Shown: positions 2,965-64,000 of the stretch, piece after piece
Layout of the letters: every line of letters begins with the position of its first letter
Numbering within the stretch: position 1 is the stretch's first letter
From: Candidatus Omnitrophota bacterium
Lineage (GTDB): Bacteria; Omnitrophota; Omnitrophia; JAHJGZ01; JAFGJY01
Direction: 5' to 3'
Assembly (NCBI GenBank): GCA_016928875.1
Contig: JAFGJY010000089.1
Location: forward strand, 3,625 to 67,624
Length of the DNA stretch: 64,000 nt
Program-made: the position numbers and the translations under genes
Notes under the pieces: generated by a model
Told to the model about the DNA's origin: nothing
Database searches by the model: none
Seen by the model: the letters and a program-made list of their open reading frames with translations, nothing else

Positions 2965-2970
2965 TTTATT

Positions 2971-3012: not shown

Positions 3013-3022
3013 ACGTGTATCG

Positions 3023-4189
3023 TTACTCCGTATACACCCTCGCCAACCCCTGATCAAGCAGTTCCTGATTTAAAAACGCCCCTTCCCGTGCCACACGCGC
3101 CGCATCATCCGCACCCGGCATATAGAATACATCGGCAAGATACCGCCCGTACTTATCAGCCTTGAACGTCCGTATCACGATCACCCGTTGCTTAGAATCC
3201 GTCTCCCCTTTTAAGGCGTAAAGCCTCGTTGAGGCAACGCCTCTTTTCGAGGGGAGTGTCGCGGAGCGACGAGGGGTTTTACGTTCAGACGCTTGCCCCT
3301 TGACCCTTGCACCTTGGCCCTTCACACCAAGCGCTCTTTCCACGTATTCCTTGGCCCTACGCCCCAGGATCGATTCTTGTTCAGGAGCATCGATCCCGCG
3401 TAAGCGTACTTTCATCTCGATCCACGTATAAAAACCAAGGTCGATCCGTAGGACGAGCGTATCGCCGTCAATGACTCGCGCAACCTCCGCCTTATAAATG
3501 TAGAGGTCGGCAGATCTGTTCACATCAGTGCCGAATGAAAATACCGCGCCATCCTTACGCACATGCGCAATATTCGATGCATTCTTATATTTGTTCTTAC
3601 AATCGATCTCGCGGTCAATACCAAATCCAAGATCGATGATCGCCCGCCGTTTCTCTTTCATAAGCTGGGGATTAAACCGCACGCGATAATAATACAACGT
3701 ACCGCGCGTAAACGCGATAACCGGCCGTTCTCCTCCCGGCCCGATCAACTCGACCCGGCACTCTTTCTGCCGCCTCAGGTCGGACATCAACTGTTGGAAC
3801 TGCTTAGGCTTGATCTTCTCGCGCCTAATGCGCGCCTCGAGCCGGCCCCGTTCACGGCCATCATCGATCGCGATCAGCACCTTATAATGCGTCCAATGCA
3901 GGCCATCATCGGGACACACCGGATAGAGCCGCTGGAATTTCGCGATCGAATAAAAATACTTCGTGCTGCTCTGATCAAAATCGCGTGTAAGCAAACGGAT
4001 GGTCTTCGCCCTCTCTGCCGCAGTCAGATCTGCCTCCATAACATGCTCATTGAGAACCTTGCCGATCCGCCAATACATGGCCACAAGCTCCTTACGCGCC
4101 GCATCCTCAACATTGACCCGCGCCCGTTCGAACTCAGACCTGATCGAATTACGTATCGTCGTGTACCGTGATTTTTCGAGGGTTTTCAT
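3023..4189 (-). CDS. DUF1016_N-like domain fused to a thermonuclease (SNase) domain
   Basis: N-terminus KELVAMYWRIGKVLNEHV...FYSIAKFQRLYP resembles the YhcG/DUF1016 N-domain. C-terminus VIDGDTLVLRID...KVRLRGIDAPE...ADKYGRYLADVF...LLDQGLARVY carries the SNase Ca/catalytic motifs. ATG 4189 overlaps the TGA of the upstream gene (ATGA). Confidence 0.75.
   Translation of the reverse strand: MKTLEKSRYTTIRNSIRSEFERARVNVEDAARKELVAMYWRIGKVLNEHVMEADLTAAERAKTIRLLTRDFDQSSTKYFYSIAKFQRLYPVCPDDGLHWTHYKVLIAIDDGRERGRLEARIRREKIKPKQFQQLMSDLRRQKECRVELIGPGGERPVIAFTRGTLYYYRVRFNPQLMKEKRRAIIDLGFGIDREIDCKNKYKNASNIAHVRKDGAVFSFGTDVNRSADLYIYKAEVARVIDGDTLVLRIDLGFYTWIEMKVRLRGIDAPEQESILGRRAKEYVERALGVKGQGARVKGQASERKTPRRSATLPSKRGVASTRLYALKGETDSKQRVIVIRTFKADKYGRYLADVFYMPGADDAARVAREGAFLNQELLDQGLARVYTE
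3188..3328. repeat. ~141-bp structured insertion translated in frame within the SNase domain
   Basis: It encodes GVKGQGARVKGQASERKTPRRSATLPSKRGVASTRLYALKGETDSKQ between the conserved ..EYVERAL and VIVIRTFKADKYGR segments. It contains the nested palindrome ctcccctttt aaggcg..gcctcgttgaggc..cgcct cttttcgaggggag and a 7-bp-periodic block ccccttgacccttgcaccttggccc. Confidence 0.6.
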
Positions 4190-5835
4190 AGGATATTATC
4201 ATTGGTGTCAGGCACCAATTGCTTTTTCTTGTAAATCAATATCTCGGGCGGAGGAAATTCGAGCGGCACATTGACATGGATGTAAAATCTTTTGACAACT
4301 TCGTACGGACTATCCTTTTTCATAAATACATCGTCATAAAACATGAATATTTCTGGCGTCGGACATGAATAACGATACCATTCGTTGGCGTATTTATCAT
4401 CGAGAACATAGTCTTCGTTCACCTTGTTATCTTTGATCGATTCTGTGACTTTATCGATATCATCCTGCCGCATAATTATGATGTCAGGATATTCTAATAA
4501 ATTCTTCTCAATGTATCGGTTAAAATCGAACTTTGGCATCCGCCAGGCATGCGTTTTCCACGTGTATTGCTCTGACACTGACCCCACGCCTACTGTCGTC
4601 CCTGCTGGTATAGTTTCTTCAATGTATTGTGAAGCAGTGATACGAGTATCATGAAGGCGTAAATATATCCCCGATACACAAGAATATATTGAAGAGCATA
4701 TGGTCAGAAAAACAAAGCTCCATCCTGCTATTTTCATGAATACATGTTTAGAACCAATAAACTGACAACACGTATATGCCGCGATTAAACATAAGAACGG
4801 TGCTATGGTCGCTATGTACCTAGCGACCGTGAAATAGCGCCAGAACATATAATATGCAATTAAAAAAACTACGAGTAAAAAAGCGTGAGGCCTCGCACCT
4901 CTTATAGAATAAAATAACCCTATGAAGGCAAGTACCGTAACATAAAGCCCCACTGCGATTCTTGTTTCCTCATACCATTGACAGATAACGTTCACCCCCA
5001 AGGATCGATACCGGTCTACCCAATGGATCTTCTCTCTGGTATAGAATCCCACATAGCCCGAAATGTCGCGAAAAATATGGGGATGAAATAAAATAAATAC
5101 AATACCTCCGACCAACAAAGATATACAAATTAACTTTAGCTGTCGGAAAAAGACTATTTGGTTAAAACCATCCTTTCGAAAAGCGGGCAATAAAAAGAAT
5201 ATACACGCAGGCGCTACGAACATTCCACTTGTTATCTTGGTCCCCATCAAGAGACCGATACACATACCGAATATCAAACTGCTGCCGATCGATTTCTTAT
5301 TATATAGATGTATAAATGAAATGAACGTCAGCAATAAGAAAAACCCCATCGTAATATCAACGGTACACAATGGACTATTTAACACATGATAGAATGAGCA
5401 ACTCAAGAATGCAGCCGCAATGATGCCTGTCATTGGGCTGAATAGCTTCTTTCCTAAAATATACACCAAATAAAGTGACCCCGTGCCGAATATCACCGAC
5501 GCTAATCTTCCCATTATTATTGCGATCAATTTATAGTAATCTCGTGCTGATAATATTTTTACAACAATGAACTTTATGGGCAACATAACCATCCCAACGA
5601 TATATTGCATCGTAGTACCATACGCAGGAAATTGTGATGTCTCCAGATAGACCGACGGGAAATTAATTATGGTCGTATACAATTTCACCTCGTCTGGATG
5701 GAATCTTTTTGAATATAACCCGATCGGAACCCCCCACGAAATAGGGATTATTCGCAAACAAAAAGACAACACCATTAAAACAAATATTAAATTATTATCT
5801 TTTATAAAATCCTTCACGACGCGTAACGTATTCAC
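4186..5835 (-). CDS. Membrane GT-C glycosyltransferase (GT39/ArnT/PMT_2-like)
   Basis: 549 aa. The N-terminal two thirds is polytopic membrane, with an early FHPDEVKLY loop, followed by a soluble C-terminal domain. The tail ..QLVPDTNDNIL is encoded by the palindrome at 4201..4219. Confidence 0.6.
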   Translation of the reverse strand: MNTLRVVKDFIKDNNLIFVLMVLSFCLRIIPISWGVPIGLYSKRFHPDEVKLYTTIINFPSVYLETSQFPAYGTTMQYIVGMVMLPIKFIVVKILSARDYYKLIAIIMGRLASVIFGTGSLYLVYILGKKLFSPMTGIIAAAFLSCSFYHVLNSPLCTVDITMGFFLLLTFISFIHLYNKKSIGSSLIFGMCIGLLMGTKITSGMFVAPACIFFLLPAFRKDGFNQIVFFRQLKLICISLLVGGIVFILFHPHIFRDISGYVGFYTREKIHWVDRYRSLGVNVICQWYEETRIAVGLYVTVLAFIGLFYSIRGARPHAFLLVVFLIAYYMFWRYFTVARYIATIAPFLCLIAAYTCCQFIGSKHVFMKIAGWSFVFLTICSSIYSCVSGIYLRLHDTRITASQYIEETIPAGTTVGVGSVSEQYTWKTHAWRMPKFDFNRYIEKNLLEYPDIIIMRQDDIDKVTESIKDNKVNEDYVLDDKYANEWYRYSCPTPEIFMFYDDVFMKKDSPYEVVKRFYIHVNVPLEFPPPEILIYKKKQLVPDTNDNIL

Positions 5836-38798: not shown

Positions 38799-38812
38799 AT
38801 ACTCTCCTGTAA

Positions 38813-39158
38813 TTTAGTTATTCGTAAATCGTAATTCGTAAAAAGTAATGCGTAAATCGTGGTTAGTATCTAGTGCCTCGTGTATCCTAATAATAAGCCA
38901 AATATCGGGACGTGCACTCCTTAAAATATATCTATTTTGAGGATAACGTCAAAACTTTAATCAGGGAAACATTTTTAGGATTTATATTTTGCGCACAGAT
39001 TAGTTGATGCGATAACTCTTTTATTTCAATTACGTTATGAACATACACCACGTTTTACGCCTTACGTTTTACGCATTACGCTTCACGCCTCACGTTTTAC
39101 GCATCGCGCCTCACAATTCACCAACCACAATCCACCAGCCACGATTCACCAACCACCT
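38813..39158. repeat. ORF-less inverted-repeat cassette: CGTAA-word arm (38813..38860), ~185-nt core, TTACG-word arm (39049..39113) plus CACCAACC-word block (39114..39158)
   Basis: The arms are mutually complementary word arrays. The 16-mer gtaattcgtaaaaagt (38831..38846) is identical to 39404..39419. The 22-mer gccttacgttttacgcattacg (39059..39080) is identical to 41863..41884. Confidence 0.75.
38925..38952 (-). promoter_or_regulatory. Candidate sigma70-type promoter inside the ORF-less cassette core
   Basis: The minus strand reads TTGACG (38952..38947) - 16 nt - TATATT (38930..38925), ~125 nt upstream of the epimerase ATG. The context is AT-rich, so a chance match is possible. Confidence 0.2.
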
Positions 39159-39382
39159 ACATTATTCCTGACCTTTTCTTTTATCGCCCTATACGTTGTC
39201 ATCTGTTGTATTTCAGCCATCGTGAATTTCATCGAAAACTCGTTTTCAAGCGCTGTGATCATACGTAAATGTGTCATCGAATCCCAATCACCATGAGACA
39301 CCTGGGAAAAATCGTCATTAATAGACTTTACATCAATATCAAAAAAATCCGCCAGAAATTCTTTTAATTGGTCTTCCATCAT
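39146..39382 (-). CDS. Acyl carrier protein
   Basis: 78 aa with GDWDSMTHLRMITALENEF (the DS phosphopantetheine-attachment Ser context). The last codons VGGW-stop are encoded by the CACCAACC-word block. Confidence 0.85.
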   Translation of the reverse strand: MMEDQLKEFLADFFDIDVKSINDDFSQVSHGDWDSMTHLRMITALENEFSMKFTMAEIQQMTTYRAIKEKVRNNVGGW

Positions 39383-39425
39383 ATACCTCGTAAGTCGTAA
39401 AATGTAATTCGTAAAAAGTTAATTG

Positions 39426-39785
39426 TTAGCGTTTCAACGAAAATATCAAACCATTTAACATCTTTTTTATGTCTGTTATTTCTTGTTCAATCTTAAAGGC
39501 ATCTTTAACATAACCCTGTTTTTGTGCTATCACAATATGTGTATCTAATTCTGCAAGAGAACCGAGAGCCACATACAAGAACTGCGCAAACTCCTTTTTT
39601 GATTGCCTGCCTGCACCCTCGGCTATATTGGCCGGGATCGATACAGCAGCACGACGCATTTGACTAATCATCCCAAACTTTTCATCATCAGGAAAAGCTT
39701 TCACTAATACATAGATGTCGCTTACAAGTTCTATGCTTCTTTTCCATACATCGAGATCTTTATGACTTTTGTAAGTACTCATCAC
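39426..39785 (-). CDS. Four-helix-bundle protein (23S rRNA intervening-sequence protein family), copy 1
   Basis: ..KDLDVWKRSIELV..FPDDEKFGMISQMRRAAVSIPANIAEGAGRQSKKEF.QFL.VALGSLAELDT.. is the hallmark of this family. Start is GTG 39785 or ATG 39782. Confidence 0.9.
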   Translation of the reverse strand: MMSTYKSHKDLDVWKRSIELVSDIYVLVKAFPDDEKFGMISQMRRAAVSIPANIAEGAGRQSKKEFAQFLYVALGSLAELDTHIVIAQKQGYVKDAFKIEQEITDIKKMLNGLIFSLKR

Positions 39786-39802
39786 GCCTCACGTTTTACG
39801 CC

Positions 39803-41668
39803 TTACGTCTTACGAATTACCTCGATCCACGGCGTCTCAGTAATGCTACCTTTAACATCAGTACACTCGTACTCTACCGTCCCGTCATCCAGCTTCATCA
39901 CGACCTCAAACCCATGTTCATCAAAAAACGTCTTACACGGCATATTCTTCTTCGTCGGCACATACTCCGCCTTTATCTTATCTATGCCCCATGCACCATG
40001 CACTATGCACTTTTTCAGCACTCCCATCGCCGCCGCCTCTATCCCTCGCCCGAGCGCTCGGCAACTTATTATAAAACTATCTATTACCGCTTCTTTATTT
40101 TCAATTTTTACGAGGTATGTCCCAATAATGCCCAAATTCCCGAACTTATCTTCTGCTTCAACTACATGAAGAATACAATTATTATCTTTATAAAAAATCT
40201 CAATATCGCCAATATCGTAGCGTTTTGTAGTTACATTAAACTGATTGGTTTTAATAAATAACTGGTGAACACGCGCAAGCTGGTCTGTGTTGGGTTTATA
40301 GACCCGCACGGATGTACCTAGCGAATGCAAATACTCATTAATGTCAGTAATAGCACTTTTCTCCTCTTCCCGCTTCCGTTGCTGTTTGTATTGGATTGAC
40401 TTGGTCGCATCTTCGGCCGTGATAGTCAAACGTTCAAAGCACGGCAACGAATAAATAAGAGGTGCATATTCAACGGGGTCATCAGATAACTGTATGGTCA
40501 TGACATCAGGCTGCGCTTCCCTCATAAGCTCGCATTCCGCCGGATTGTCATCTATAAAGACAATACTATCGAGCCCAATATTAAGCTGCCCCGCGATCTT
40601 TGCTATATTCACCGCTTTAGGCTCCCAATCGACCATGATCGCGGAAAAATCATCCAATGAAAGGGGCATCTCTGATGCACGCAGTTTAAAAAGCTCTTCA
40701 ACATCCGCCATATTGTTCTTACTGCAAATCGCTAACAGTATCCCTCTCGCCTTAAGTGACTTTATTGCATATTGGAACGCCCTAAAGGCTTCAGCCTGCG
40801 GATTACCCTGTCCTATCAACACACCCTGCGGCCCATCTTCACCTACTATACCGTCCCACAATGTATTGTCCAGATCAACAACTAAACACTTCATTGCGCA
40901 TCCCTTGATCACTTGAATATATCGAGCAATATCAGCAGCCATAAACCGCATGAAATCATCCGACCATTCGATCTTGGATAAATAATAAAAGGTATCGTCA
41001 CATGCACGTTCACTGCCAAACCGATTAACGGCACCCGCAAGATCATAAATAACAACGCGTGGATCCTTCTTAAATGCCGTACTCAACATAGTGTTAAGGT
41101 GAGCGTAAAATGCACTTTCACCAGCCTCACTTTTTGTATCAGCGATCCCATACGCTTTACGTGCCGGCATTGCAAAATTTGCCACCATGATCATCGACTT
41201 TGTGCTCTTAGAAACCATTTGAACCCACTGTTTACATTCATCGATGATACGGGCAGCCTCAGCTTTATGTTCTGCCGATGATAAAGAGCTATACTGATAA
41301 TAAATATCCGGAGACAATTCTCGCAGTGATAATTGGAAGAAAATGACGCTAGGCTTAGCGGCATATAGGCCAGATTGCGGATTAAGCGCCTCCTGTTGGT
41401 ACTGTCCATAGGGGGCTACATATTCAGAGATCGATATCCCTCTGCACAGCGCTGATGCAATAACATTACGTGAAATTACATCAAGGGTAGTATTTCCCAC
41501 AAATGAAACTTTAATATCCGTTTTATCAGCCTCTTTATTCTTTTTATAAATCAAATCAATGTCCTTTGAGGAAAGGTCTTCAGAAGCAACAGACACAAGT
41601 ATCTTCTTCAACGCAGAAATCGACTCACTATTTTTTATCGACTCTCTTAATTGCTTATTATCACTCAT
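39803..41668 (-). CDS. FkbH-like HAD-IIIC phosphatase/acyl-loading protein with C-terminal GNAT-like domain
   Basis: CLVVDLDNTLWDG (HAD DxDxT) and IFIDDNP. 621 aa. The last codons VIRKT-stop are encoded by the TTACG-word arm. Confidence 0.8.
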   Translation of the reverse strand: MSDNKQLRESIKNSESISALKKILVSVASEDLSSKDIDLIYKKNKEADKTDIKVSFVGNTTLDVISRNVIASALCRGISISEYVAPYGQYQQEALNPQSGLYAAKPSVIFFQLSLRELSPDIYYQYSSLSSAEHKAEAARIIDECKQWVQMVSKSTKSMIMVANFAMPARKAYGIADTKSEAGESAFYAHLNTMLSTAFKKDPRVVIYDLAGAVNRFGSERACDDTFYYLSKIEWSDDFMRFMAADIARYIQVIKGCAMKCLVVDLDNTLWDGIVGEDGPQGVLIGQGNPQAEAFRAFQYAIKSLKARGILLAICSKNNMADVEELFKLRASEMPLSLDDFSAIMVDWEPKAVNIAKIAGQLNIGLDSIVFIDDNPAECELMREAQPDVMTIQLSDDPVEYAPLIYSLPCFERLTITAEDATKSIQYKQQRKREEEKSAITDINEYLHSLGTSVRVYKPNTDQLARVHQLFIKTNQFNVTTKRYDIGDIEIFYKDNNCILHVVEAEDKFGNLGIIGTYLVKIENKEAVIDSFIISCRALGRGIEAAAMGVLKKCIVHGAWGIDKIKAEYVPTKKNMPCKTFFDEHGFEVVMKLDDGTVEYECTDVKGSITETPWIEVIRKT

Positions 41669-41703
41669 ATTTTGGAATATTAAAGGTAGGGTTTCTTATA
41701 TAT

Positions 41704-41833
41704 GTCGCGTCCCGGCTTGTTTTATGTCATTCCCGACTTACTTCACGTCATTTCCGACTTGCTTCACATCATTCCCGACTTGCTTCATGTCATTCCCGAC
41801 TTGCTTCATGTCATTCCCGCGAACGCGGGAATC
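41704..41833. repeat. 21-bp half-palindrome stutter array (about 6 units) ending in a full palindrome
   Basis: Units start at 41704, 41726, 41747, 41768 and 41789 (gtcattcccgacttgcttcat and variants). The terminal unit is gtcattcccgcgaacgcgggaatc (41810..41833). Confidence 0.85.
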
Positions 41834-41862
41834 TATATTGATGTTTCCGTTTAACTTCCCAT

Positions 41863-41949
41863 GCCTTACGTTTTACGCATTACGTCTTACTCCCCGCTAT
41901 CCACCAAGCACTAATCACCAACCACCAACCACTAACCACCATCCACCAA
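41863..41949. repeat. Second copy of the composite TTACG-word + CACCAACC-word block
   Basis: gccttacgttttacgcattacgtcttac, then atccaccaagcactaatcaccaaccaccaaccactaaccaccatccaccaat. It has the same order and orientation as 39049..39158. Confidence 0.8.
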
Positions 41950-44022
41950 TTACTCCACCGCATTCACAACTTTTTGAAGATCAATGCTATCCACTGTGCC
42001 GCTACTGTCAACATCACCGTCAGCAGTGGCCGGCGTTCTTTCGATCACTTGATCTTTTACAATAGTAACATCATCAGCATCGATATCACCGTCCTTGTCT
42101 ACATCTTCTACTAATAATGCTCCAAGATCAGTAATCACTACATCGTCAAAGCTTGCAGCGTCATTATAACTACCGAAACCCACTCTGCCTTGCGGAAGAG
42201 TAACTCCGGTAGCTTGCATAACAAGATTTGTATCAAAGTAAACAGATACGGTGCTACCTTGATAAATAACTCTGACAGGATGAAATGCATTATCCGTTAC
42301 AAGGGCAGCTGCTGTATAACTGGTCAATTCTGTCCTTGTACCATTTACAATCCTAAACAGCTGATTTGAAGCAGCATTAGCATTAAATATTGCATAATAA
42401 TAATTGCTCGCATCTGTATACCCAAACACAACAGCATAGTCTGCATATCCATTCGCCACTAAGTCTTCATCAGAACGAGCATCAAGTTCGATATCAAACG
42501 TATCAAATGATTGGCTATTGAATAATGTATACTCCCCCAACATATCACCGTCTTGGTTAAAATCGGTGGTATTTATCGAATATACGATATTGCCTCCCTC
42601 ATCAACAGTTTCCCATCTACTCCCTGTTTTAGGGGAATAATTTACGGCATTCCCCGCTGTCCCGGGAGCAAAGATAGCATTTGCCGGCGCAGATTCTATA
42701 GTGAACTGATAATTTACCTGCGGCATTACATTAGCCGGATCATGAAGGTCCTGAGCATTAACCTTAATGTCAACATTTTGACCATAACTAAACGGCTGAG
42801 CAGGAGTAAATGTCACTAAATAGTCATTTTGTGAACCTGATATTGTGGGATTAACAAGCTGATCATTTACATACAAACGGATCGATGATTGATCAACCCC
42901 TTCACCCGCATCTAACACATGAAAACTAATTGGAGTATTTGCAGAAACATTAGTACTATTAGCTGTAGGAATGTGCGACGAAATATACGGAGAAGAAAAA
43001 TCATCACCCCCTGATTGACCAATAGTAACTGGGAACCCTACGCTTGGATCTCCATTATTATCAATCACAAACAAATACACTTGATTACCACTCTGAAAAG
43101 TCCCTGTGTTTACTTCTACACTAATGGACGACGCATTCCACGATGTCGGGATTTGTAGCTCACGATGAGTGCAAGCGTTATAGCTCATATTGTTACCTAT
43201 GACAACGCGTGACCAGCTTGAATCTATATATGCATCATCCATTTGAAGCAATGAGCCATCTGTTATGTCACCATAATTGCTATGCCATCCGAACCTATAA
43301 AATCTCCAGGACCCAAGAGAAGTAGAACCACCTAACCACTGGAGATTATCAGATGGATCCAAGTTACAACCACTCTTTAACTCACCATCAACATACCATC
43401 GGGCATATCCATCAGTGGCTATATTTGACGATGGAACACGAATAATAAATTCAAATAAATGCCATTGGTGGAGAGACATATCCCTTGGCGTCCATCCATC
43501 AATCATACTATATGCCGGATTGGCGTTGTTTGGGGTTAAATATGCTGAGCCGCTGACTTCTGACCAACAAAATTCAGCACCAATATCACCACCATGAAAT
43601 CTCATCCACTTATATCCATTTCCCCAGCCTGCATCCGACCAATTCCAGTTGCCAGTACATTTATACCACACAGCAGCATAAAACTTTCCACCATAGGTCG
43701 GTGGCATTGAATTCTTATTATCAAGTGCGCGAGCCCAATTTGTACCCATATCACCCTGCGCAACACCGCCACGCTGCCCATCACTTACAGTTGTAAGCTG
43801 GTAAGGATTGCTCCACTCACTTATATCAATACCATCTTCAAAGTCATCAAAAACCTGAGGAGCTGCTGTTGTTTTAGTCCCAAAGGAACTTCCTCCAATT
43901 GTGACAATTGCCTCATCAGAAAATTCACCACTTACATTATTAATTATTGGAGCAGCACAAACAGAAGAACCACAAGCCACTAGAATTAAAGAAAGAAAAA
44001 GCATGATATATTTATTTTGCAT
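41950..44022 (-). CDS. Secreted multidomain protein: ConA-like/LamG-type jelly-roll domains, Ig-like domain, C-terminal type-I dockerin
   Basis: Start MQNKYIMLFLSLILVACGSSVCAAP (signal peptide; GGAG RBS) at 44022. C-terminus DVDKDGDIDADDVTIV...DGDVDSSGTVDSIDLQKVVNAV is a duplicated Ca-binding dockerin repeat. The middle ..ISFHVLDAGEGVD..IRLYVNDQLV.. is Ig-like. Confidence 0.6.
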   Translation of the reverse strand: MQNKYIMLFLSLILVACGSSVCAAPIINNVSGEFSDEAIVTIGGSSFGTKTTAAPQVFDDFEDGIDISEWSNPYQLTTVSDGQRGGVAQGDMGTNWARALDNKNSMPPTYGGKFYAAVWYKCTGNWNWSDAGWGNGYKWMRFHGGDIGAEFCWSEVSGSAYLTPNNANPAYSMIDGWTPRDMSLHQWHLFEFIIRVPSSNIATDGYARWYVDGELKSGCNLDPSDNLQWLGGSTSLGSWRFYRFGWHSNYGDITDGSLLQMDDAYIDSSWSRVVIGNNMSYNACTHRELQIPTSWNASSISVEVNTGTFQSGNQVYLFVIDNNGDPSVGFPVTIGQSGGDDFSSPYISSHIPTANSTNVSANTPISFHVLDAGEGVDQSSIRLYVNDQLVNPTISGSQNDYLVTFTPAQPFSYGQNVDIKVNAQDLHDPANVMPQVNYQFTIESAPANAIFAPGTAGNAVNYSPKTGSRWETVDEGGNIVYSINTTDFNQDGDMLGEYTLFNSQSFDTFDIELDARSDEDLVANGYADYAVVFGYTDASNYYYAIFNANAASNQLFRIVNGTRTELTSYTAAALVTDNAFHPVRVIYQGSTVSVYFDTNLVMQATGVTLPQGRVGFGSYNDAASFDDVVITDLGALLVEDVDKDGDIDADDVTIVKDQVIERTPATADGDVDSSGTVDSIDLQKVVNAVE

Positions 44023-55102: not shown

Positions 55103-56640
55103 TGTCCAATACTCTCGTAAATATTGATATCAAGTTTTCTATCGAAATGAAGTTGCTTAAAGTTCTCTTCTAAGAATTTCTTAACCTCAGGTTTAAAATA
55201 CCTCTTATCATCAAGATCATCAAATCTTGATACAAAATAAACTTTTTTATGGGCTAAGACTTTTCTTATTATATTTAAATCCTCAATTCTTTTTGGGTTT
55301 CTGACTGATTCATCAAGTGACTCCATAAAACTCCATAGATAATCAGGTTCTTTACCAAAATAATAACAAAAATGTTCCCATTCTGTTGATACAAATACAG
55401 CATCCCTATCGATCTTATCTTTTATTGATTCATAGAAAGCCTTATAATCCCCCCAAGTACATTTAATTGCTCTATCGATAGCGGGAAGTGCAATAGGAAC
55501 AGTAATTATAAATATGAATACAAGTATAAAAAGACTCAAACCCGCCTTGATGGCCATTGCCTTTTCTTTCATGCTTTTCATCGCTCTATTAATGATAACT
55601 GACGCAAAAACAGCAGGAATAAGCAAATAAAATGAAATCCCATAAAAGAAATATCTCTCTTGTTTGACTCGAAACAAAAATGAATGCAATAGCACTAACG
55701 TTAAGAAAACAATACTGAAATACAAACCGCGACGTTTATACTTTTGGATCATACAAACTATGCCAAAAGGGAGAAAATATATCATAACCCCATAATAATC
55801 GGTTAATATCCATCGATAATAATGAGGAGAGAACGTCATATATTTGTCCCACCCTAATCCATAACGCGCTATTGTGTAGAACTCGATCATGTATTCTTTC
55901 TTCACAAAATAGCAGATCATAAATAATAAAGGAATTCCTACTAAAGTAAGTAAATATTTATACCACACCCCGGAAAACCGCTCCTCTCTGTCATAGGTAA
56001 CAATTACGAAGCGAATAATGGCATAAAAGAATAGAACAAAAGAAAAGTTTGCTGCCAACGGCTGAAGAATGAACGCAACTCCAAAGGCAAGACATGATAA
56101 AAAAAGCATTGTCGGTGATATCTGCATTTTATTTATGATTGGAATTCCCTTGATAATATGTTTGTCTCGATTTTGTTCATAGCCTTCGAAGAAGAACCAA
56201 ACCCCCGTAAAAAAGAATAGGTTAAAAAGAGCATACATCCGGCAACCGCGAGCGAAGTGAATGTTCAATGGGCTAAGTGCCAAGAATAACATAAATATAA
56301 ATGCCACATTAAGCCCAAAAACACTTCTCACCAAAAGAAATCCTATAATTATAAAAGCGATATCGAATATTACCGAAGGGAACCGAGCAGACCATTCATC
56401 CCTTCCAAAAAGTTTAAACGAAGCAGCAACACTATATGTGAATGGCAGAGCTCGCGTATAAAGTCGTTCTGGTGGAATTATGGGTTGACCCGTCTCAATA
56501 ATACCCTTGGCGGCCAACACATGAAAAAACTCATCTTGCCAAAAGCCGAACTTCCCAAGGTCCCACAATCTCAAACAAAGAGCTACACCGATAATCAAAA
56601 TGAACAAAGCAACATAAATAGTTTTATTATGTATTTTCAT
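55099..56640 (-). CDS. Membrane GT-C glycosyltransferase (ArnT/GT39/GT83-like), second copy
   Basis: The start MKIHNKTIYVALFILIIGVALCLRLWDLGKFGFWQDEFFH at 56640 forms an ATGA overlap and follows a GGGAGG RBS. The D-E loop after TM1 is typical of GT-C. The protein is polytopic with a soluble C-terminus. Confidence 0.65.
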   Translation of the reverse strand: MKIHNKTIYVALFILIIGVALCLRLWDLGKFGFWQDEFFHVLAAKGIIETGQPIIPPERLYTRALPFTYSVAASFKLFGRDEWSARFPSVIFDIAFIIIGFLLVRSVFGLNVAFIFMLFLALSPLNIHFARGCRMYALFNLFFFTGVWFFFEGYEQNRDKHIIKGIPIINKMQISPTMLFLSCLAFGVAFILQPLAANFSFVLFFYAIIRFVIVTYDREERFSGVWYKYLLTLVGIPLLFMICYFVKKEYMIEFYTIARYGLGWDKYMTFSPHYYRWILTDYYGVMIYFLPFGIVCMIQKYKRRGLYFSIVFLTLVLLHSFLFRVKQERYFFYGISFYLLIPAVFASVIINRAMKSMKEKAMAIKAGLSLFILVFIFIITVPIALPAIDRAIKCTWGDYKAFYESIKDKIDRDAVFVSTEWEHFCYYFGKEPDYLWSFMESLDESVRNPKRIEDLNIIRKVLAHKKVYFVSRFDDLDDKRYFKPEVKKFLEENFKQLHFDRKLDINIYESIGQ

Positions 56641-57551
56641 ACCTCCCACCGCTTCATTTTTACTATCAATTTGTGGCCTGATAAAAAGAATATCAAATGA
56701 TCGAATTGCGCGAAGAGCCAAAATAACGGATATGTCAGTGAATACGCCATAAATAGTTTCTTGTATTTATTCATGTCATGTGAAGTCACGACGTTGCCTT
56801 TGGATGGTTCTGTGTTCTGGGTTGCACGCTCGGATAAGTTCTGAGTTCCGAGTTCTGAGTTCTGGGTAGCGACATTGGATGAGTTCGGGGTTCGGGGTTC
56901 GGGGTTCTGAGATGTACACTCTGAACTCTGAACTCTGAACTCAGAACCTTTTAACAATCCCATCCCAAAACAAATAATGATGTCTATCAATTCCGAAAAG
57001 AAACGTGAATAGGCCCGGGATGTGGCTACATCAAAGCTATCGAAGAGCTCTGCAAGCTCTTTTTTTGTATACCCGGGGCGTACATGCCCGTGCTTTTCGT
57101 CTGTTAACCCTAGCATATATTGTAAAGGCCGTATGAGTGACCACGATACTTTATGCGGCGCAAGTACTATTAATTCACCTTCCGGCTTCAATATGCGTTT
57201 AATTTCCAGCGCAAAAGCGTGATCGTCCTCTACGTGTTCTAGCATATCAACGATAACGATAACGTCAAAAGCATGATCAGCAAATGGCAGATGAGGCGGA
57301 TTGTCGATATGCACGACATTAGTTTTAACCAATGACTCGATCGAGTTAACCGTTTCCATACTGAGATCCGCACTCGTCCATTGACCACCTTGCTGTCGCA
57401 ATAAATAACTGATAACACCATTATCAGAACCCAGATCAAGACAGGCCTTGTTATCTAGGTTAGGTAGTAAACGATTAATCTGGTGCCATTTTTCTTTCTT
57501 GAGCACTGATTTTGAGAATAATTTTAAATGCCAATTATCCATTGCGTTCAC
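56637..57551 (-). CDS. Class I SAM-dependent methyltransferase (type 11) with an in-frame repeat insertion near the C-terminus
   Basis: CLDLGSDNGVISYLL (motif I), FDVIVIVDMLEHVEDD. The segment SEFRVQSSECTSQNPEPRTPNSSNVATQNSELGTQNLSERATQNTEP is encoded by the repeat at 56807..56948. Confidence 0.8.
   Translation of the reverse strand: MNAMDNWHLKLFSKSVLKKEKWHQINRLLPNLDNKACLDLGSDNGVISYLLRQQGGQWTSADLSMETVNSIESLVKTNVVHIDNPPHLPFADHAFDVIVIVDMLEHVEDDHAFALEIKRILKPEGELIVLAPHKVSWSLIRPLQYMLGLTDEKHGHVRPGYTKKELAELFDSFDVATSRAYSRFFSELIDIIICFGMGLLKGSEFRVQSSECTSQNPEPRTPNSSNVATQNSELGTQNLSERATQNTEPSKGNVVTSHDMNKYKKLFMAYSLTYPLFWLFAQFDHLIFFLSGHKLIVKMKRWEV
56807..56948. repeat. ORF-less GTTCTGAG-word palindromic element inside the methyltransferase CDS
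   Basis: The left arm gttctgagttccgagttctgagttctggg (56838..56866) matches the reverse complement of the right arm ctctgaactctgaactctgaactcagaacc (56919..56948) at about 25/29 positions. The centre holds a gttcggg x3 tandem (56883..56905). Confidence 0.8.
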
Positions 57552-60036: not shown

Positions 60037-60082
60037 TTATGTTCTCCTCTTGTAATTATAATTGGTGCGGGTTGTTTTTTAT

Positions 60083-60185
60083 TGTCATCCTGAGACGAGC
60101 GAAGCGAGGCGAAGGATCCAGGATAAGCATTCACGTGGTACTTGTAGCCTAGATCCTTCGCCCCTCCGGGGCTCAGGATGACAGC
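60083..60185. repeat. Hairpin MITE family A, copy 2 (intergenic, abutting the stop of 60187..61146)
   Basis: tgtcatcctgagacgagcgaagcgaggcgaaggatccaggataagc...cctagatccttcgcccctccggggctcaggatgacagc. The minus-strand frame AVILSPGGAKDLGYKYHVNAYPGSFASLRSSQDD is open. Confidence 0.85.
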
Positions 60186-60186
60186 A

Positions 60187-61146
60187 TTATTTAATTATTT
60201 CAGCTGTAACTGTACTTAATTTTTCCGCTTTGTATTTTCCTTGCCGTAAAATGATCACGCTTAATAACGCTAAAAAAATAAAATGCGTCACCAGCATGAG
60301 CATCAGCAATGTCGCTCCGGGAAAGACGATGCCCGGCGTATGCGCAAAGATATAATGTTCTATGGTCGCGATGAGACAGAGCACGCTTAATGCCAGGAAC
60401 GGTAATGTCCAGAACGCGAAGAATAATGCCGGCTTTGTTGAGAAACGAGTTAAAAGCACCATAGTAAATAGATCCGCAAACACCTTGAACGTCCGTGAAA
60501 GCCCGTATTTTGATTTCCCATACACCCTCGCATAATGGTTCACCGGCATCTCCGCGGTACGAGCACCGGTGATCGAAGCCACTGCCGGGAAAAAGCGATG
60601 CATCTCAGCGTATGCCTGCACTTCCCTGATACATTCCCGTTTGTATGCCTTGAGCGAACAACCGTAATCGTGCAAATGAACGCCGGTGAGGATCGATATG
60701 AGCTTATTGGCACACATTGAGGGTAACTTGCGCGTTAAGAATTTATCCTGGCGTTTGTACCGCCACCCGCTCACGACCTCATAGCCTTCGTCCATCTTAT
60801 CAAGCAACTTTTTCATATCAGCCGGATCGTTCTGCAGATCGCCGTCCATGGTAATAATGATATCGCCGCGTGCGTGATCGAAACCCGCGACCATGGCCGG
60901 CGTCTGGCCGTAATTCTTTCTGAAGCGGATAACGCGCAGGTCATTGGTGCCTGACACCAACTGTTTCAATATCTCAGGTGTCTTGTCACTCGAGCCATCA
61001 TCGATCAATATGATCTCATACGAACGCCCAAGCTTTACCGCTTCATCGTGGACACGCTCATAGAGCTTCTTAACGCATTCTTGTTCGTTGTAAATAGGAA
61101 TTACGATCGACAGATCAGGGTTCATGGTGCATAGTTCATGGTTCAT
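60187..61146 (-). CDS. GT2 polyprenol-phosphate glycosyltransferase (ArnC/GtrB-like)
   Basis: LSIVIPIYNEQE..ILIDDGSSDKT..ITMDGDLQNDP plus C-terminal TM helices. ATG 61146 forms ATGA with the 4HB stop. The first 7 codons (MNHELCT) lie in the repeat arm; an alternative start is ATG 61125 (MNPDLSIVIP). Confidence 0.85.
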   Translation of the reverse strand: MNHELCTMNPDLSIVIPIYNEQECVKKLYERVHDEAVKLGRSYEIILIDDGSSDKTPEILKQLVSGTNDLRVIRFRKNYGQTPAMVAGFDHARGDIIITMDGDLQNDPADMKKLLDKMDEGYEVVSGWRYKRQDKFLTRKLPSMCANKLISILTGVHLHDYGCSLKAYKRECIREVQAYAEMHRFFPAVASITGARTAEMPVNHYARVYGKSKYGLSRTFKVFADLFTMVLLTRFSTKPALFFAFWTLPFLALSVLCLIATIEHYIFAHTPGIVFPGATLLMLMLVTHFIFLALLSVIILRQGKYKAEKLSTVTAEIIK

Positions 61147-61508
61147 GGTACGATACTCTTCATTAATGCTGTAATTTTACGGCCTAATTGAGACAGCAAG
61201 CTCAATAATCGTTCTTTAATTTCATTATTTAAAAATCCCAAATTATATGAAAGCATTACTTGCGTTTCTAATTCAGCTAACGACCCTCGCGCGATACTCA
61301 AAAACTGCTTAAACTCTTTCTTGTGTGAACGTCGAAACCCTTCTGCAATATTCGAAGGAATTGAAACCGCAGCTCTTTTCATTTGTATAACAATTCCATA
61401 TTTTTCTTCATCGGGATAATTGCTACAGACCTCGTAGACAAATTTAGCCAAGACCATCCCCTCTTGCCACACGATCAAATCTTGATATGTCTGTATCTTT
61501 TTATTCAT
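61143..61508 (-). CDS. Four-helix-bundle protein (23S rRNA IVS protein family), copy 3
   Basis: MNKKIQTYQDLIVWQEGM..YPDEEKYGIVIQMKRAAVSIPSNIAEGFRRSHKKEFKQFLSIARGSLAELET.. . The start at 61508 was chosen by alignment with copies 1 and 2; the ORF-track GTG at 61535 lies in the repeat arm. Confidence 0.9.
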   Translation of the reverse strand: MNKKIQTYQDLIVWQEGMVLAKFVYEVCSNYPDEEKYGIVIQMKRAAVSIPSNIAEGFRRSHKKEFKQFLSIARGSLAELETQVMLSYNLGFLNNEIKERLLSLLSQLGRKITALMKSIVP

Positions 61509-61552
61509 ATTCTTTATTGCTTTACCATGCACCACGCACTATGCACCATGCA

Positions 61553-62386
61553 CTATACTTTCAGGGAATCCCCATACTCCGCGATGGTCATGAATTCATT
61601 GCCCGACATGATCGCACGCAATTTTGATTCTGTTTTATCAAGGTTTATATAATGTCGGAATGCTGCTAACGCGTTCGTCGTTATGCGCGGCTGTTCCGGA
61701 TCGAATTCCCACGGATGAAAGTACATATTCACAACCTGCTCTGCGGCATTGACCTGTTGCATACATTTTTTTATTACCCATAAAGGCAACATTCTAAAGT
61801 AACCGCCGCCGGCAAAGGGTATCCTCTTACCTAATACTTCTGCGGTTGATATTGGTATCTCCTGCAACTGCCCTTTTTGCGTTTTTATGACATACGGATA
61901 ACGCTCTTTACTCGGCAAGCCATAATGATCATGATGCATCGGGAACAATGATGAGTCGAACTCAATCCCAAGTTCTTTTATAACATCATATGCCCACATG
62001 GTCTTCCGTGATATTGAAAAGCATGGCGCTCGATAGGACCTTATCTTCTTCTGCGCCAAGGTGCCTAATATCTGCAGAGACCTTTCTACATCTTTCTTAT
62101 ATTCTTCTTGAGTTTGTTTGTATACGAGTTCATGCCCATAGCCATGAGAGGCGATCTCATGGCCACGTTCGGCAATGTGTCTTATCACATCAGGACGTTT
62201 TTCTGCCACACACCCAAGCACAAAAAAGGTCGCCTTGGCATTATGATCATCGAGGATACGCAATATTCTCATGAGGCCTACGGTAAGACGTGAGTCGAAG
62301 TTCTTCCACTCGTCCTGACGTATGACAGACTTGAAGTTCTCCACTTGGTAATATTCTTCGACGTCGAAGGTGAGTATGATCTTCAC
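61553..62386 (-). CDS. Polysaccharide deacetylase (NodB-type; resembles the DUF3473/PEP-CTERM-locus subfamily)
   Basis: VKIILTFDVEEYYQVENF.., ..IASHGYGHE.., C-terminal ..YFHPWEFDPEQP. GTG 62386 is preceded by AAGGAG at 6-nt spacing. The ORF-track ATG 62440 lies in a repeat (IRYTIY words). Confidence 0.8.
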   Translation of the reverse strand: MKIILTFDVEEYYQVENFKSVIRQDEWKNFDSRLTVGLMRILRILDDHNAKATFFVLGCVAEKRPDVIRHIAERGHEIASHGYGHELVYKQTQEEYKKDVERSLQILGTLAQKKIRSYRAPCFSISRKTMWAYDVIKELGIEFDSSLFPMHHDHYGLPSKERYPYVIKTQKGQLQEIPISTAEVLGKRIPFAGGGYFRMLPLWVIKKCMQQVNAAEQVVNMYFHPWEFDPEQPRITTNALAAFRHYINLDKTESKLRAIMSGNEFMTIAEYGDSLKV

Positions 62387-62444
62387 TTGGTGCTCCTTGT
62401 ATATCGTATAGCGTATTGCGTCGTGCGTATTGCGTTGCACCCCT

Positions 62445-62555
62445 CGTCATCATTACGAAAGAGTGCAGGGCCCTTGCTTCCGTCGTCATTGCGAAAGAGT
62501 GCAGGGCCCTTACTTCCGTCGTCATTGCGAGTGAACACAGCGCTCTTACTCTTCA
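62445..62555. repeat. 36-bp half-element stutter array (about 3 units) leading into MITE A copy 3
   Basis: Units cgtcatcattacgaaagagtgcagggcccttgcttc (62445..62480), cgtcgtcattgcgaaagagtgcagggcccttacttc (62481..62516), and a degenerate third unit. Confidence 0.8.
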
Positions 62556-62664
62556 TGTCATCCTGAGACGAGCGCAGCGAGGCGAAGGATCCAGGATATT
62601 TGTTCACTAGGTTCGCATAACCTGGGTCCTTCGTCACGCCTTTGGCGTGACTCAGGATGACAGC
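62556..62664. repeat. Hairpin MITE family A, copy 3 (intergenic)
   Basis: tgtcatcctgagacgagcgcagcgaggcgaaggatccaggatatttg...cctgggtccttcgtcacgcctttggcgtgactcaggatgacagc. The frame VILSHAKGVTKDPGYANLVNKYPGSFASLRSSQDD is open. Confidence 0.85.
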
Positions 62665-62687
62665 GGTATCATTATGCATTACTTGAA

Positions 62688-62789
62688 TCATGTCCTCGGG
62701 CTCCAGGTAACCAGTTTTTTGCCTCTAAGCCACTCAACCCCGGCGACCATGGAGGCGTAGTTGACGAGGCAAAGATAATAACATAAACG
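62688..62789 (-). pseudogene. Detached second copy of the last 33 codons + stop of the GT2 gene at 62932..64000
   Basis: It encodes RLCYYLCLVNYASMVAGVEWLRGKKLVTWSPRT-stop, against RLCYYLCLVNYASMVAGIQWLRGKKLVTWNPRT-stop at 62932..63033. That is 3 aa changes despite many nucleotide (mostly synonymous) differences. No upstream coding continuation exists. Confidence 0.75.
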
Positions 62790-62801
62790 TACAATCTTCC
62801 T

Positions 62802-62905
62802 TGTCGTCCTCAGCCTCTTCCCTTTGTCGTCCCGGAATTCTTCTGTCGTCCCCGCGGAAGCGGGGATCTCGGTACTTAGGTCCCCGCTTTCGCGGGGACG
62901 ACATG
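62802..62905. repeat. Family B palindromic element, copy 1, preceded by about 21-bp tgtcgtcc stutter units
   Basis: tgtcgtcc starts at 62802, 62824 and 62844, then gtccccgcggaagcggggat-ctcggtacttag-gtccccgctttcgcggggac (62844..62905). Confidence 0.8.
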
Positions 62906-62931
62906 AAGATGAAATGGGACGACGTGCTACG

Positions 62932-64000
62932 TTATGTTCTCGGATTCCACGTAACTAATTTCTTCCCCCTCAGCCACTGGATGCCGGCGACCATAGAGGC
63001 GTAGTTGACAAGGCACAAATAGTAACAGAGACGGATAACTGAGTATATCGTATTTCGTATATCGTATTTCGTCGCACCATTGTCGTCATTGCGTCTCTTG
63101 CTGTCATCCTGAGGAGTTTCGCCTTCAGGCGGAACGACGAAGGATCCAGGATATTCGTTCACTTGATTCAAGTAACCTGGGTCCTTCGCCCCTTCGGGGC
63201 TCAGGATGACAGCGGCTGCGCCGGAACGAACATATCCATACACCGCCAATGCATAAAATACCAACTGCAGCGTAAACAGCACGTGATACAACGTACCGGC
63301 CGGGATGAGAAAATAATTGGTTATAAAGACGACGAGCTGCATCCAGCCTATATCATAACGGAATCCCTTGTGTGAGATGATCTGCCAGCTTACAAGGCCA
63401 TTATTAAAAACGTTAAACGATAAGTCCTTAAATTTCATGAGCGCATGAATGCTGCGGAGCGCCACGCGCACACGCATCGAAAATTCTTCTTCATGGGTCT
63501 CATTTGCATCTTCAACGATCACCGCTTCGGGCTCATAGACAACGCGGTAATTTTTCTGCATAACTGTTAAAGGCAATACGAAATCCGGTAGGTCTTCAGC
63601 GTCCATATCTTCATAAAGCTCTAGACGACAGGCGTCTATACCGCCGTCAACGCCGATCACAGAGCCGACCTTGGTCTCGAGTTTGCGCAATGTGTTCTCA
63701 TAGGCCATGTAGGCGCCGCAGCCTTCACTGACACCGCTGTCTGTCTTTGTCTGATAGACCATTTTACCCGTTACGTAGCCGACGGTCGGGTCTGCGAAAT
63801 TACGGATAAGGGCTTTTATAGCTCCTGGTTTATATATAGAATTAGCATCGCTGAAGATAAGAATAACATCACCGTTATCACCTATTGTCGTCCCCGCGGA
63901 AGCGGGGATCTCGGTACTTAGGTCCCGGCTCTGCGGCCGGGATGACATGGCTAGGTCCCCGCTTTCGCGGGGACGACATGAATCGGTGCCGGGACGACCT
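62932..64000 (-). CDS. GT2 glycosyltransferase with C-terminal TM helices, partial (N-terminus beyond window end), carrying two in-frame repeat insertions
   Basis: ..DVILIFSDANSIYKPGAIKALIRNFADPTVGYVTG.. (GT-A D-x-D/DAN region), ..EDLPDF.., and C-terminal TM segments. The frame stays open upstream of ATG 63948 to position 64000, so the true start lies outside the window. Confidence 0.7.
   Translation of the reverse strand, partial: GRPGTDSCRPRESGDLAMSSRPQSRDLSTEIPASAGTTIGDNGDVILIFSDANSIYKPGAIKALIRNFADPTVGYVTGKMVYQTKTDSGVSEGCGAYMAYENTLRKLETKVGSVIGVDGGIDACRLELYEDMDAEDLPDFVLPLTVMQKNYRVVYEPEAVIVEDANETHEEEFSMRVRVALRSIHALMKFKDLSFNVFNNGLVSWQIISHKGFRYDIGWMQLVVFITNYFLIPAGTLYHVLFTLQLVFYALAVYGYVRSGAAAVILSPEGAKDPGYLNQVNEYPGSFVVPPEGETPQDDSKRRNDDNGATKYDIRNTIYSVIRLCYYLCLVNYASMVAGIQWLRGKKLVTWNPRT
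63102..63213. repeat. Hairpin MITE family A, copy 4 (inside the GT2 CDS, in frame)
   Basis: tgtcatcctgaggagtttcgccttcaggcggaacgacgaaggatccaggatattcg...cctgggtccttcgccccttcggggctcaggatgacagc. Translated as AVILSPEGAKDPGYLNQVNEYPGSFVVPPEGETPQDDS. Confidence 0.85.
63886..63980. repeat. Family B palindromic element, copy 2 (inside the GT2 CDS, in frame)
   Basis: Same as 62844..62905 but with an extra internal palindrome, gtcccggctctgcggccgggat. Translated as ..RESGDLAMSSRPQSRDLSTEIPASAGTT.. . Confidence 0.8.

Follow-up and report, generated by a model that had tools for sequence, protein, structure and literature searches.

Palindromic repeats read in frame within two loops of a predicted membrane glycosyltransferase from Candidatus Omnitrophota

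Results

The glycosyltransferase gene and its locus

A 64,000-nt stretch of DNA from a metagenome-assembled genome (MAG) of a Candidatus Omnitrophota bacterium, referred to in its entirety as the window, ends within a gene for a family 2 glycosyltransferase (GT2) on the minus strand, the frame of which passes through two groups of repeats: a dimer of repetitive extragenic palindromic (REP) units, termed family B, and a MITE-like element (for miniature inverted-repeat transposable element), termed MITE A, with an adjoining heptamer array. All evidence for this host gene comes from one MAG contig. As stated in a preliminary description of the same DNA, which gave the open frame as running from 64000 to 62932, no stop interrupts the minus strand from 63999 to the TAA at 62932-62934 (355 codons). 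The 355 amino acids (aa) are residues 139-493 of the 493-aa public protein MBN1493562.1 (hereafter P0001; 100% identity, 100% coverage), which is recorded as "glycosyltransferase [Candidatus Omnitrophota bacterium]" and encoded on a 68,678-bp MAG contig. The first 138 codons lie past the window end, and the 138 residues that they encode in P0001 align with a conserved N-terminal transmembrane helix and with the GT-A domain over its first half. The preliminary description had raised the prospect of truncation by a stop or frameshift located upstream of 64000; none was found through P0001, the conserved N-terminal half being intact. The ATG at 63948, which is the mechanical start of the open reading frame (ORF), was rejected as the true start because the upstream frame encodes this conserved half and because the codon itself lies inside a nested repeat hairpin.

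The gene sits in an XrtA/PEP-CTERM-type exopolysaccharide locus. Directly downstream is an XrtA-system polysaccharide deacetylase gene (TIGR03006, 331 bits), followed by a further pair of GT2 genes and by genes for a radical-SAM/SPASM protein and a methyltransferase; the order is the same as on contig L003 of another Omnitrophota assembly (GCA_042576765.1). Positions of the gene parts and repeats are collected in Table 1.

Table 1. Gene parts and repeat elements in the 64,000-nt window
Feature	Position	Strand	Details
GT2 gene, 3' part (residues 139-493 and stop)	62932..64000	-	open frame, protein identity, Pfam, AlphaFold2, Foldseek
Insert 1, in-window part	63871..64000	-	roughly residues 123-181; +58 residues in total
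Family B copy 2, an inverted pair of CGTC-tagged REP hairpins	63886..63978		93 nt, 31 codons; read as CRPRESGDLAMSSRPQSRDLSTEIPASAGTT
Nested third hairpin, in the loop of family B copy 2	63919..63951		33 nt, 11 codons; TCCCGGC-CGCAGA-GCCGGGA
MITE A copy 4, hairpin element	63100..63215		116 nt; read as AAVILSPEGAKDPGYLNQVNEYPGSFVVPPEGETPQDDS; -62.9 kcal/mol, z = -8.2
Spacer with GACGACA word between MITE A copy 4 and heptamer array	63073..63099	-	part of insert 2
"IRNT" block, 7-nt tandem array	63043..63072		ATACGAW on coding strand, 4.3 copies; Tandem Repeats Finder
C1, last 35 codons of the GT2 gene	62935..63039	-	final transmembrane helix and conserved W-x-P-R tail; stop follows at 62932-62934
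Family B copy 1, REP dimer right after the GT2 stop	62826..62923		core 62845-62905, outer GTCGTCCC arms; -69.5 kcal/mol, z = -10.2
C2, second copy of the last 35 codons and stop	62688..62794	-	IVRLCYYLCLVNYASMVAGVEWLRGKKLVTWSPRT, then stop; 78% nt identity (repeat D6)
MITE A copy 3, intergenic	62551..62666		translation deposited as spurious 102-aa protein P0121
36-nt tandem repeat and 7-nt arrays	62399..62550		36-nt repeat 62445-62550 (units begin CGTCGTCAT), 7-nt arrays 62399-62435; Tandem Repeats Finder; rest of spacer up to deacetylase gene
MITE A copy 1	2488-2595		
MITE A copy 2	60078-60185		
Predicted junction peptides of the read-through product			ESGDLAMSSRPQSR, DLSTEIPASAGTTIGDNGDVILIFSDANSIYKPGAIK, DPGYLNQVNEYPGSFVVPPEGETPQDDSK

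The predicted enzyme and its two extended loops

Full-length P0001 matches PF00535 with 69.5 bits (cut-off 23.3) and PF13641 with 42 bits (cut-off 27). The fragment encoded in the window, taken alone, gave no significant match against Pfam and NCBIfam, and the PF00535 alignment of the full-length protein ends at residue 125, where insert 1 starts. None of the NCBIfam equivalogs reaches its cut-off on P0001, the best being PgaC_IcaA with 66 bits against a cut-off of 422. A set of 113 homologues was used for linker lengths, for invariant columns and for an AlphaFold2 model, which has a mean per-residue confidence score (pLDDT) of 85, a predicted template modeling score (pTM) of 0.83 and 354 residues with a pLDDT of at least 90. 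The modeled fold consists of an alternating strand and helix core (GT-A) with helices at residues 2-29, 352-404 and 452-481, and values below 50 are confined to residues 141-178, 408-436 and 442-447, i.e., to the inserts. Foldseek matches comprised PcManGT (6yv7, E = 2e-15) as well as hyaluronan synthase, BcsA and chitin synthase (structures 6yv7, 7sp7 and 4p00 among them). Judged from its sequence, the gene product is a membrane-embedded, synthase-like GT2 protein with presumed glycosyltransferase activity. Across the 113 homologues, P0001 keeps 47 of the 47 invariant columns; residues that are invariant or nearly so, all present in P0001, include D80/S82/D84, G110-K111, D189-A190-N191, D256-G257-G258, P276-D277 and M313-R314-x-R316-V317, to which we assign catalytic roles on the assumption that general knowledge of GT2 enzymes applies.

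The insertions occupy two sites that are short in almost all relatives, as is visible in the alignment of homologues. Site 1 separates the helix that follows the GKTxALN motif from the beta-strand with the DAN (DxD-type) motif, just before DVILIFSDAN; this linker (LNxA to the strand ILVFSDAN) measures exactly 7 aa in 108 of the 113 homologues and 65 aa in P0001 (+58). Site 2 is the loop before the last helix. In 108 of the 113 homologues it is 13-16 aa long, compared to 69 aa in P0001 (+54); insert 2 (63040-63215) there separates the final pair of predicted helices (H374-404 and H452-481). Both placements agree with the preliminary description, which had put family B copy 2 at 63886..63980, ahead of the DAN segment, and MITE A copy 4 with the "IRNT" block at 63040..63213, between C-terminal transmembrane (TM) helices; the limits in Table 1 differ from these by a few nucleotides. 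Its figure of about 90 extra residues was too low, the sum being 58 + 54 = 112, and the shortfall is partly due to the ~17 residues of insert 1 that lie beyond the window end. These 112 residues explain the difference between the 493 aa of P0001 and the roughly 381 aa expected.

Insert 1 is net acidic and hydrophilic, and 21 of its 59 residues are P, G or S. In Rossmann-like GT-A folds, the N-terminal end of a strand lies opposite the substrate-binding face; insert 1, situated where a helix passes into the N-terminal end of the DAN strand, would point away from that face. Insert 2 is likewise net acidic and hydrophilic (P, G or S at 15 of 55 residues), and its heptamer array was modeled as an N-terminal extension of the last helix (pLDDT 88 at residues 451-460). 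In insertion-free homologues the site 2 loop is rich in K and R (2.0 in ~8 residues) while the turn between TM2 and TM3 is uncharged, which suggests that the loop is cytoplasmic; insert 2, following the TM2-TM3 hairpin, thus probably lies on the cytoplasmic side of the membrane.

The repeat families

A family B unit has an 8-bp stem and a loop of 4-5 nt (GTCCCCGC-GAAA-GCGGGGAC), and every listed unit in the window and on L003 starts with CGTC. The strict REP motif CGTCCCCGCGNNNGCGGGGAC matches the window eight times (four units on both strands), compared to 0.01 matches expected by chance. Four strict units are thus found in 64 kb, and CGTC hairpins number at least 7 in 13 kb of L003. Both family B copies in the window are inverted dimers, one of them directly 3' of a stop codon, as in L003. 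Their 61-nt cores (62845-62905 in copy 1) are identical at 61 of 61 positions and are 83-85% identical to the family B cores of L003. Within the GT2 frame, copy 2 has units of the form C-GTCCCCGC-GAAA-GCGGGGAC and a folding energy of -64.1 kcal/mol (z = -6.5 versus shuffles). The hairpin nested in its loop bears a direct repeat, GACCTA, on both sides and contains the ATG at 63948. A further GTCGTCCC word occurs at 63991-63998, 21 nt outside copy 2, and repeat-derived sequence therefore reaches the window edge and beyond.

MITE A is present in four copies in 64 kb (108-116 nt, 72% mean column identity), all in one shared orientation. Copy 4, within the GT2 gene, ends in perfect 14-nt terminal inverted repeats (GCTGTCATCCTGAG / CTCAGGATGACAGC), and the words in the adjoining spacer appear, on comparison by eye, to resemble words upstream of C2. 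Across all six elements (four MITE A copies and two family B dimers), hairpin z-scores range from -4.3 to -10.2. In the alignment of the flanks, no direct repeat that could represent a target-site duplication was seen around any of the four MITE A copies, which would fit a tyrosine-transposase mode of movement (IS200/IS605 or REP-like). No transposase was found among the 15 window ORFs scanned with Pfam, nor was a RAYT or a parent element of MITE A among them. CGTC-tagged REPs are not known to have a dedicated transposase. Neither element reached the gathering score of any Rfam family, introns included, with only weak matches to miRNA precursors (long hairpins), and no terminator-like site coincides with a family B copy.

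The two families differ in how readily they can be read through. Only one of the six frames of MITE A is free of stops in all four copies (AVILS..GY..VN.YPGSF..QDD), and this is the frame used by the GT2 gene. Family B is open in four of six frames, and its read-through is by itself weak evidence of selection for that reason. The following lengths are multiples of three: 93 nt for the family B copy, 33 nt for the nested unit and 174 nt for the whole of insert 2.

An exhaustive profile search with the MITE A peptide against 1.84 billion representative proteins yielded six matches. The best, P0121, is a public cluster representative that corresponds to a spurious 102-aa ORF of the window itself (62383-62691, minus strand) that covers MITE A copy 3 together with the 36-nt tandem repeat. 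The others are restricted to the terminal half-motifs VILSEAKD and LRSAQDD and lie in other repeat-derived ORFs. Scans of metagenome DNA with a C1/C2 pattern and a 27-base MITE A pattern gave no match. Neither the MITE A peptide profile nor the C2/B peptide gave a match in word-index protein searches, which were uninformative: they also missed a known positive, P0001, with its 17-residue identical stretch. On these searches, the full MITE A looks lineage-restricted, and its terminal palindrome would belong to a more widespread class, its ends (TGTCATCC) resembling the tag region of the family B REPs (TGTCGTCC).

Codon comparison and recurrence of inserts in orthologues

Codons were compared with the orthologues on L003, an independent assembly, and on contig L004. 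Over the core, the proportion of non-synonymous differences (pN) is 0.11-0.15 and that of synonymous differences (pS) 0.70-0.87, i.e., saturated, giving pN/pS of 0.16-0.17, or 0.16-0.19 when C-terminal codons are counted. As saturation of synonymous sites leaves omega only bounded, pN/pS and dN branch lengths were used in place of dN/dS. Three-point dN branch lengths were 0.068 for the window, 0.097 for L003 and 0.056 for L004; the window lineage is without acceleration.

Comparable extensions recur in the closest relatives. At site 1, the lengths are 65 aa in P0001, 59 aa in P0003, 49 aa in P0002, 35 aa in P0004 and 15 aa in P0006; at site 2, the same proteins have 69, 20, 32, 15 and 15 aa, respectively, so that P0002 and P0003 carry extra residues at this site as well. 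The sequences that fill site 1 differ: L003 has a family B dimer in the same reading frame (SCRPCESRDLSVEIPAQGRDD) followed by ATTCGTG words, L004 has CACGAAT/ATTCGTG words, and L005 has an AGACCAY heptamer array that is present elsewhere on the L005 contig too. L003 also has a second family B copy directly after the GT2 stop codon, as in the window. As far as the sequences tell, the two loops are recurrent permissive sites, and different repeats fill them in the closest orthologues, which number four or five.

The host GT2 genes of the window and L003 are 68% identical, their synonymous sites being randomised. The 83-85% identity of the family B cores set against this value argues that these copies did not simply diverge neutrally from a single ancestral insertion. 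Their likeness may instead reflect gene conversion or constraint on the element, or each genome's own variant may have entered the same permissive sites independently. The CGTC hairpins of L003 show the stem variants CGC/GCG, TGC/GCA, TGG/CCA and GGC/GCC, and a covariation test shows two compensatory pairs; units for this test had been picked as perfect hairpins, which makes the 100% pairing circular and leaves weight only to the double changes.

A spare gene end downstream of the stop codon

A second copy of the gene end, C2, is located 244 nt downstream of C1, with family B copy 1 in between. Over the 34 codons shared from RLCYY to the stop, C1 and C2 differ by 14 synonymous and 3 non-synonymous changes; over 37 codons, including three flanking ones, the non-synonymous differences number 6, and over 35 codons pS is 0.71 and pN 0.086. 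As the differences are mainly synonymous, both copies were coding sequence during the greater part of the time since they diverged. A start codon is missing from C2, which is in the +1 frame relative to the GT2 gene. Its frame is open backwards through family B copy 1 (...SSCRPRESGDLSTEIPASAGTTEEFRDDKGKRLRTTRKIVRLCYY...), and this is the same frame of the element that the GT2 gene uses at site 1. Our preferred reading, drawn from sequence comparison, is that C2 would be the remnant of a second allele or paralogue that had family B in its site 2 loop, left behind by recombination at the family B element.

Alternatively, C2 alone could stem from an assembly chimera in which two related populations, one with family B after the stop and one with it inside the site 2 loop, were joined at the repeat. 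The contig is MAG-derived, and both the almost purely synonymous differences, as expected of two functional alleles, and the open frame through copy 1 are compatible with such a join. Set against this, 22% nucleotide divergence implies different species, whose REP copies would have to match over the k-mer length of the assembler; gene order across the junction is that of L003; and a genuine recombination that left a gene-end remnant fits the same data. We regard a chimera as the main rival to our reading of C2, and as rather unlikely.

Elements that integrate into the end of a gene can supply a surrogate end, e.g., prophage e14 in icd of E. coli. The arrangement here resembles such a 3'-end duplication in that a functional end (C1) is followed by a displaced second copy (C2) differing mainly at synonymous positions. 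It differs in that the two are only 244 nt apart, with a REP dimer in between and no integrase or element body.

Probable tolerance of the inserts and alternative explanations

The explanation that we consider probable is that the gene encodes an intact, functional GT2 enzyme which would tolerate translated selfish palindromic repeats, in frame, in two normally short loops. The preliminary description had offered tolerance in a functional enzyme and decay of the gene as an either/or, and the Pfam scores above threshold, the 47 conserved invariant columns, the lack of excess dN and the confinement of AlphaFold2 disorder to the inserts favor the former branch, activity of the enzyme being deduced from the sequence. 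Translation and the mode of element mobility are inferred likewise. In the mechanism we propose, transposition and/or gene conversion would disperse the elements over the genome; selection would retain only those insertions that fall in permissive loops, measure a multiple of three and keep the frame open; and translation of the inserts would give disordered loops, hydrophilic and acidic, that lie away from the catalytic face and that the enzyme would tolerate. Selection for permissive, frame-keeping insertions would in turn lead the same two loops to gather different repeats across related Omnitrophota lineages.

Several points weigh against this explanation. The whole case stands on one MAG contig, and GT2 codons 1-138 are known from a public protein record and not from the DNA read. 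Omega is only bounded, the dN test is low-powered on a terminal branch, and a very recent loss of function would be invisible here. A 58-aa loop two residues from the strand of the metal-binding motif could still perturb catalysis, mRNA hairpins of -63 to -64 kcal/mol could impede translation, and low AlphaFold2 confidence would denote the absence of a predicted fold, not harmlessness.

Another possibility is that the gene was recently inactivated, the insertions or the mRNA hairpins having killed the enzyme, with the frame still open as the elements are largely stop-free and the time for decay has been short. The four open frames of family B, which make its read-through weak evidence, would allow this, as would the identity of the two family B copies within the genome, which marks insertion or conversion as recent; the two further GT2 genes of the locus might compensate for the loss. 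However, all 493 codons are open, the 47 invariant residues are kept, and no dN excess is seen on the branch. MITE A offers one consistently open frame out of six, which is the frame used, and the length of each composite insert is divisible by three. Furthermore, orthologues from independent assemblies hold comparable inserts at the same sites within full-length ORFs, and pseudogenisation among orthologues, which the preliminary description had named as a finding that would speak for decay, was looked for and none was shown. An inactivated gene is unlikely on this evidence.

We give about as little credence to the idea that the inserts have been domesticated, the loops or RNA hairpins now being functional (as a cytoplasmic interaction or regulatory loop, or in translational pausing or mRNA processing) and kept in relatives for this reason. 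The four or five closest orthologues all have an extended site 1 (15-65 aa), set against exactly 7 aa in 108 more distant homologues; REP stems show compensatory changes between genomes; and a family B copy is found at the same two positions in the window and L003. Nevertheless, the insert sequences differ completely among orthologues (REP dimer, CACGAAT words, AGACCAY words), which points to tolerance, and the same elements also occur between genes and in an unrelated ORF. The covariation units, moreover, were preselected for perfect pairing, rendering that test partly circular.

A bolder proposal, to which we attach a similarly small chance, is that the loops could be landing pads, with REP-type elements and heptamer arrays repeatedly targeted to them or exchanged by gene conversion across Omnitrophota, and that REP-mediated recombination may have swapped the 3' module. 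If true, selfish repeats would serve as in-gene recombination joints that modularise a membrane enzyme, and the intact-looking spare copy C2, with its frame open through a REP dimer, would be explained. Taken furthest, the proposal has a +1 frameshift within the last seven codons lead into C2, which would yield an extended alternative C-terminus.

Removal of the inserts before the mature protein, by an intron-like, intein-like or translational-bypass route, is highly improbable, as its sole support is the strong secondary structure of both elements, which are ordinary dispersed repeats also found between genes, have no Rfam family (introns included) at threshold and no Pfam or NCBIfam match within the inserts, and are in frame and stop-free, which removal would not need; intein, intron and bypass readings were accordingly rejected for want of a supporting signal.

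Further repeats in the window and related contigs

The preliminary description had counted three other ORFs in the 64 kb that read through repeats in frame. One was verified, namely the ORF at 1615-3057 (minus strand, 480 codons), which encodes a repetitive beta-strand-like protein with no match in Pfam. This ORF runs through MITE A copy 1 in the open frame that the GT2 gene also uses, and through three 21-nt units (RGDDMGV) and a family B-like segment (KSRDLGTEVP...AFRDD), the repeats together occupying 2488-2782. The remaining two look like further in-frame repeat insertions. The SNase-domain ORF (3023-4189, minus strand) matches 78 profile positions over 128 residues and has a low-complexity stretch (GVKGQGARVKGQASERKTPRRSATLPSKRG...), and the methyltransferase ORF (56637-57551, minus strand) contains QNPEPRTPNSSNVATQNSELGTQNLSERATQNTEPS and is 304 aa long compared to 256 aa in L003. 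On L003, a CGTC REP dimer (4932-4986) lies inside an epimerase gene (4737-5819), and intragenic REPs are therefore not peculiar to the window genome.

Repeats also fill several spacers. MITE A copy 2 takes up the entire 150 nt (60037-60186) that separate the two downstream GT2 genes, and the equivalent spacer of L003 (9193-9249) holds CGTC hairpins. The two large intergenic gaps at 38799-39802 and 41669-41949 contain arrays of 7-nt words (TTACGCA and CACCAAC types, scored with period 14; 39045-39163, 39776-39821, 41710-41819 and 41849-41953) as well as tandem repeats of a 21-nt unit, TCCCGACTTGCTTCATGTCAT. In these genomes, heptamer arrays appear to form a general class of repeats, each genome having its own word.

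Around the XrtA-type deacetylase, a gene for a 23S-rRNA-intervening-sequence protein (61143-61535, minus strand; PF05635, 126 bits) stands between the deacetylase and the next GT2 gene. As L003 has these two fused into one 603-aa ORF, the PF05635 gene looks like an insertion that split or separated them. In L004, the spacer between the GT2 and deacetylase genes holds a PDDEXK_3 gene, cassette-like, between inverted CACGAAT / ATTCGTG arrays (1627-1672 and 2068-2105), the words of which also fill site 1 of the L004 GT2 gene.

Discussion

Palindromic repeats in frame within functional genes characterise the Rickettsia palindromic elements (RPEs; Ogata et al. 2000, from the summaries in PMC10969869 and PMC3733652). 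The RPE analogy drawn in the preliminary description is apt, given that the copies of family B are dimers of CGTC-tagged REPs. The CGTC tag was used by Di Nocera et al. 2013 (PMC3733652) to define one of two REP superfamilies, in which they also placed the R. conorii RPEs. Shared features are palindromic hairpin repeats of ~100-150 nt, in frame in unrelated functional genes, encoding fold-compatible peptides in several genes per region, and a CGTC end is common to R. conorii RPEs and family B. The differences are that Rickettsia belongs to the Alphaproteobacteria and Omnitrophota to the Planctomycetes-Verrucomicrobia-Chlamydiae (PVC) group, so that the likeness concerns how the elements work and not membership of the RPE family, with no relationship in sequence to be expected, and that a single Omnitrophota gene holds two element types, 7-nt arrays and a nested hairpin.

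Intragenic GTAG and CGTC REPs are reported from several phyla, with dimers encoding 20-30 aa, clusters encoding 43-82 aa and double insertions in one gene, and their hosts include Opitutus terrae, a member of the PVC group (PMC3733652). Family B conforms to this class in its ~21-nt stem-loops with CGTC at one end, which occur mostly as inverted pairs and often just 3' of stop codons; the survey of Di Nocera et al. does not extend to Omnitrophota, and the window has 4 strict units in 64 kb. The dimers are also reminiscent of the REPIN-RAYT system (Bertels and Rainey 2011, PMC3116915; PMC3337134) in that two inverted REPs with a short spacer form one long hairpin in near-identical copies within a genome. 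In contrast, REPINs are GTAG-tagged, tied to a RAYT and almost always extragenic, whereas family B is CGTC-tagged and no RAYT was among the 15 ORFs scanned.

For MITE A, in-frame fusions are known from QMITE1/2 of Coxiella (PMC5896051; reviewed in PMC10969869). Like other bacterial MITEs, it is short (108-116 nt), has 14-nt terminal inverted repeats, occurs in several copies both between genes and in ORFs, and is fused with host ORFs through its open frame. Unlike them, it has no visible target-site duplication at its four copies, and the full element was not found outside the lineage in protein and metagenome searches. The kind of event described here is therefore already known from RPEs and intragenic REPs and is mechanistically ordinary; it is new for the phylum within the searchable literature, in which no paper links Omnitrophota with REPs or MITEs and a large survey of Omnitrophota genomes is silent on repeats.

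Two details stand out: different repeats recurrently occupy one and the same pair of loops, and the gene has a spare 3' end. There are consequences for annotation, as the inserts break profile alignments (the window fragment is without a Pfam match, and PF00535 stops at the insert), create a false internal start (ATG 63948) and give rise to spurious database proteins such as P0121. For the enzyme family, the gene would represent a natural tolerance experiment in which two defined loops of a membrane GT2 synthase-like fold each accept more than 50 disordered residues. Omnitrophota are mostly ultra-small bacteria with host-dependent traits (PMC10066038), and, by analogy and in parallel with Rickettsia, reduced and drift-prone genomes may be those that tolerate such insertions.

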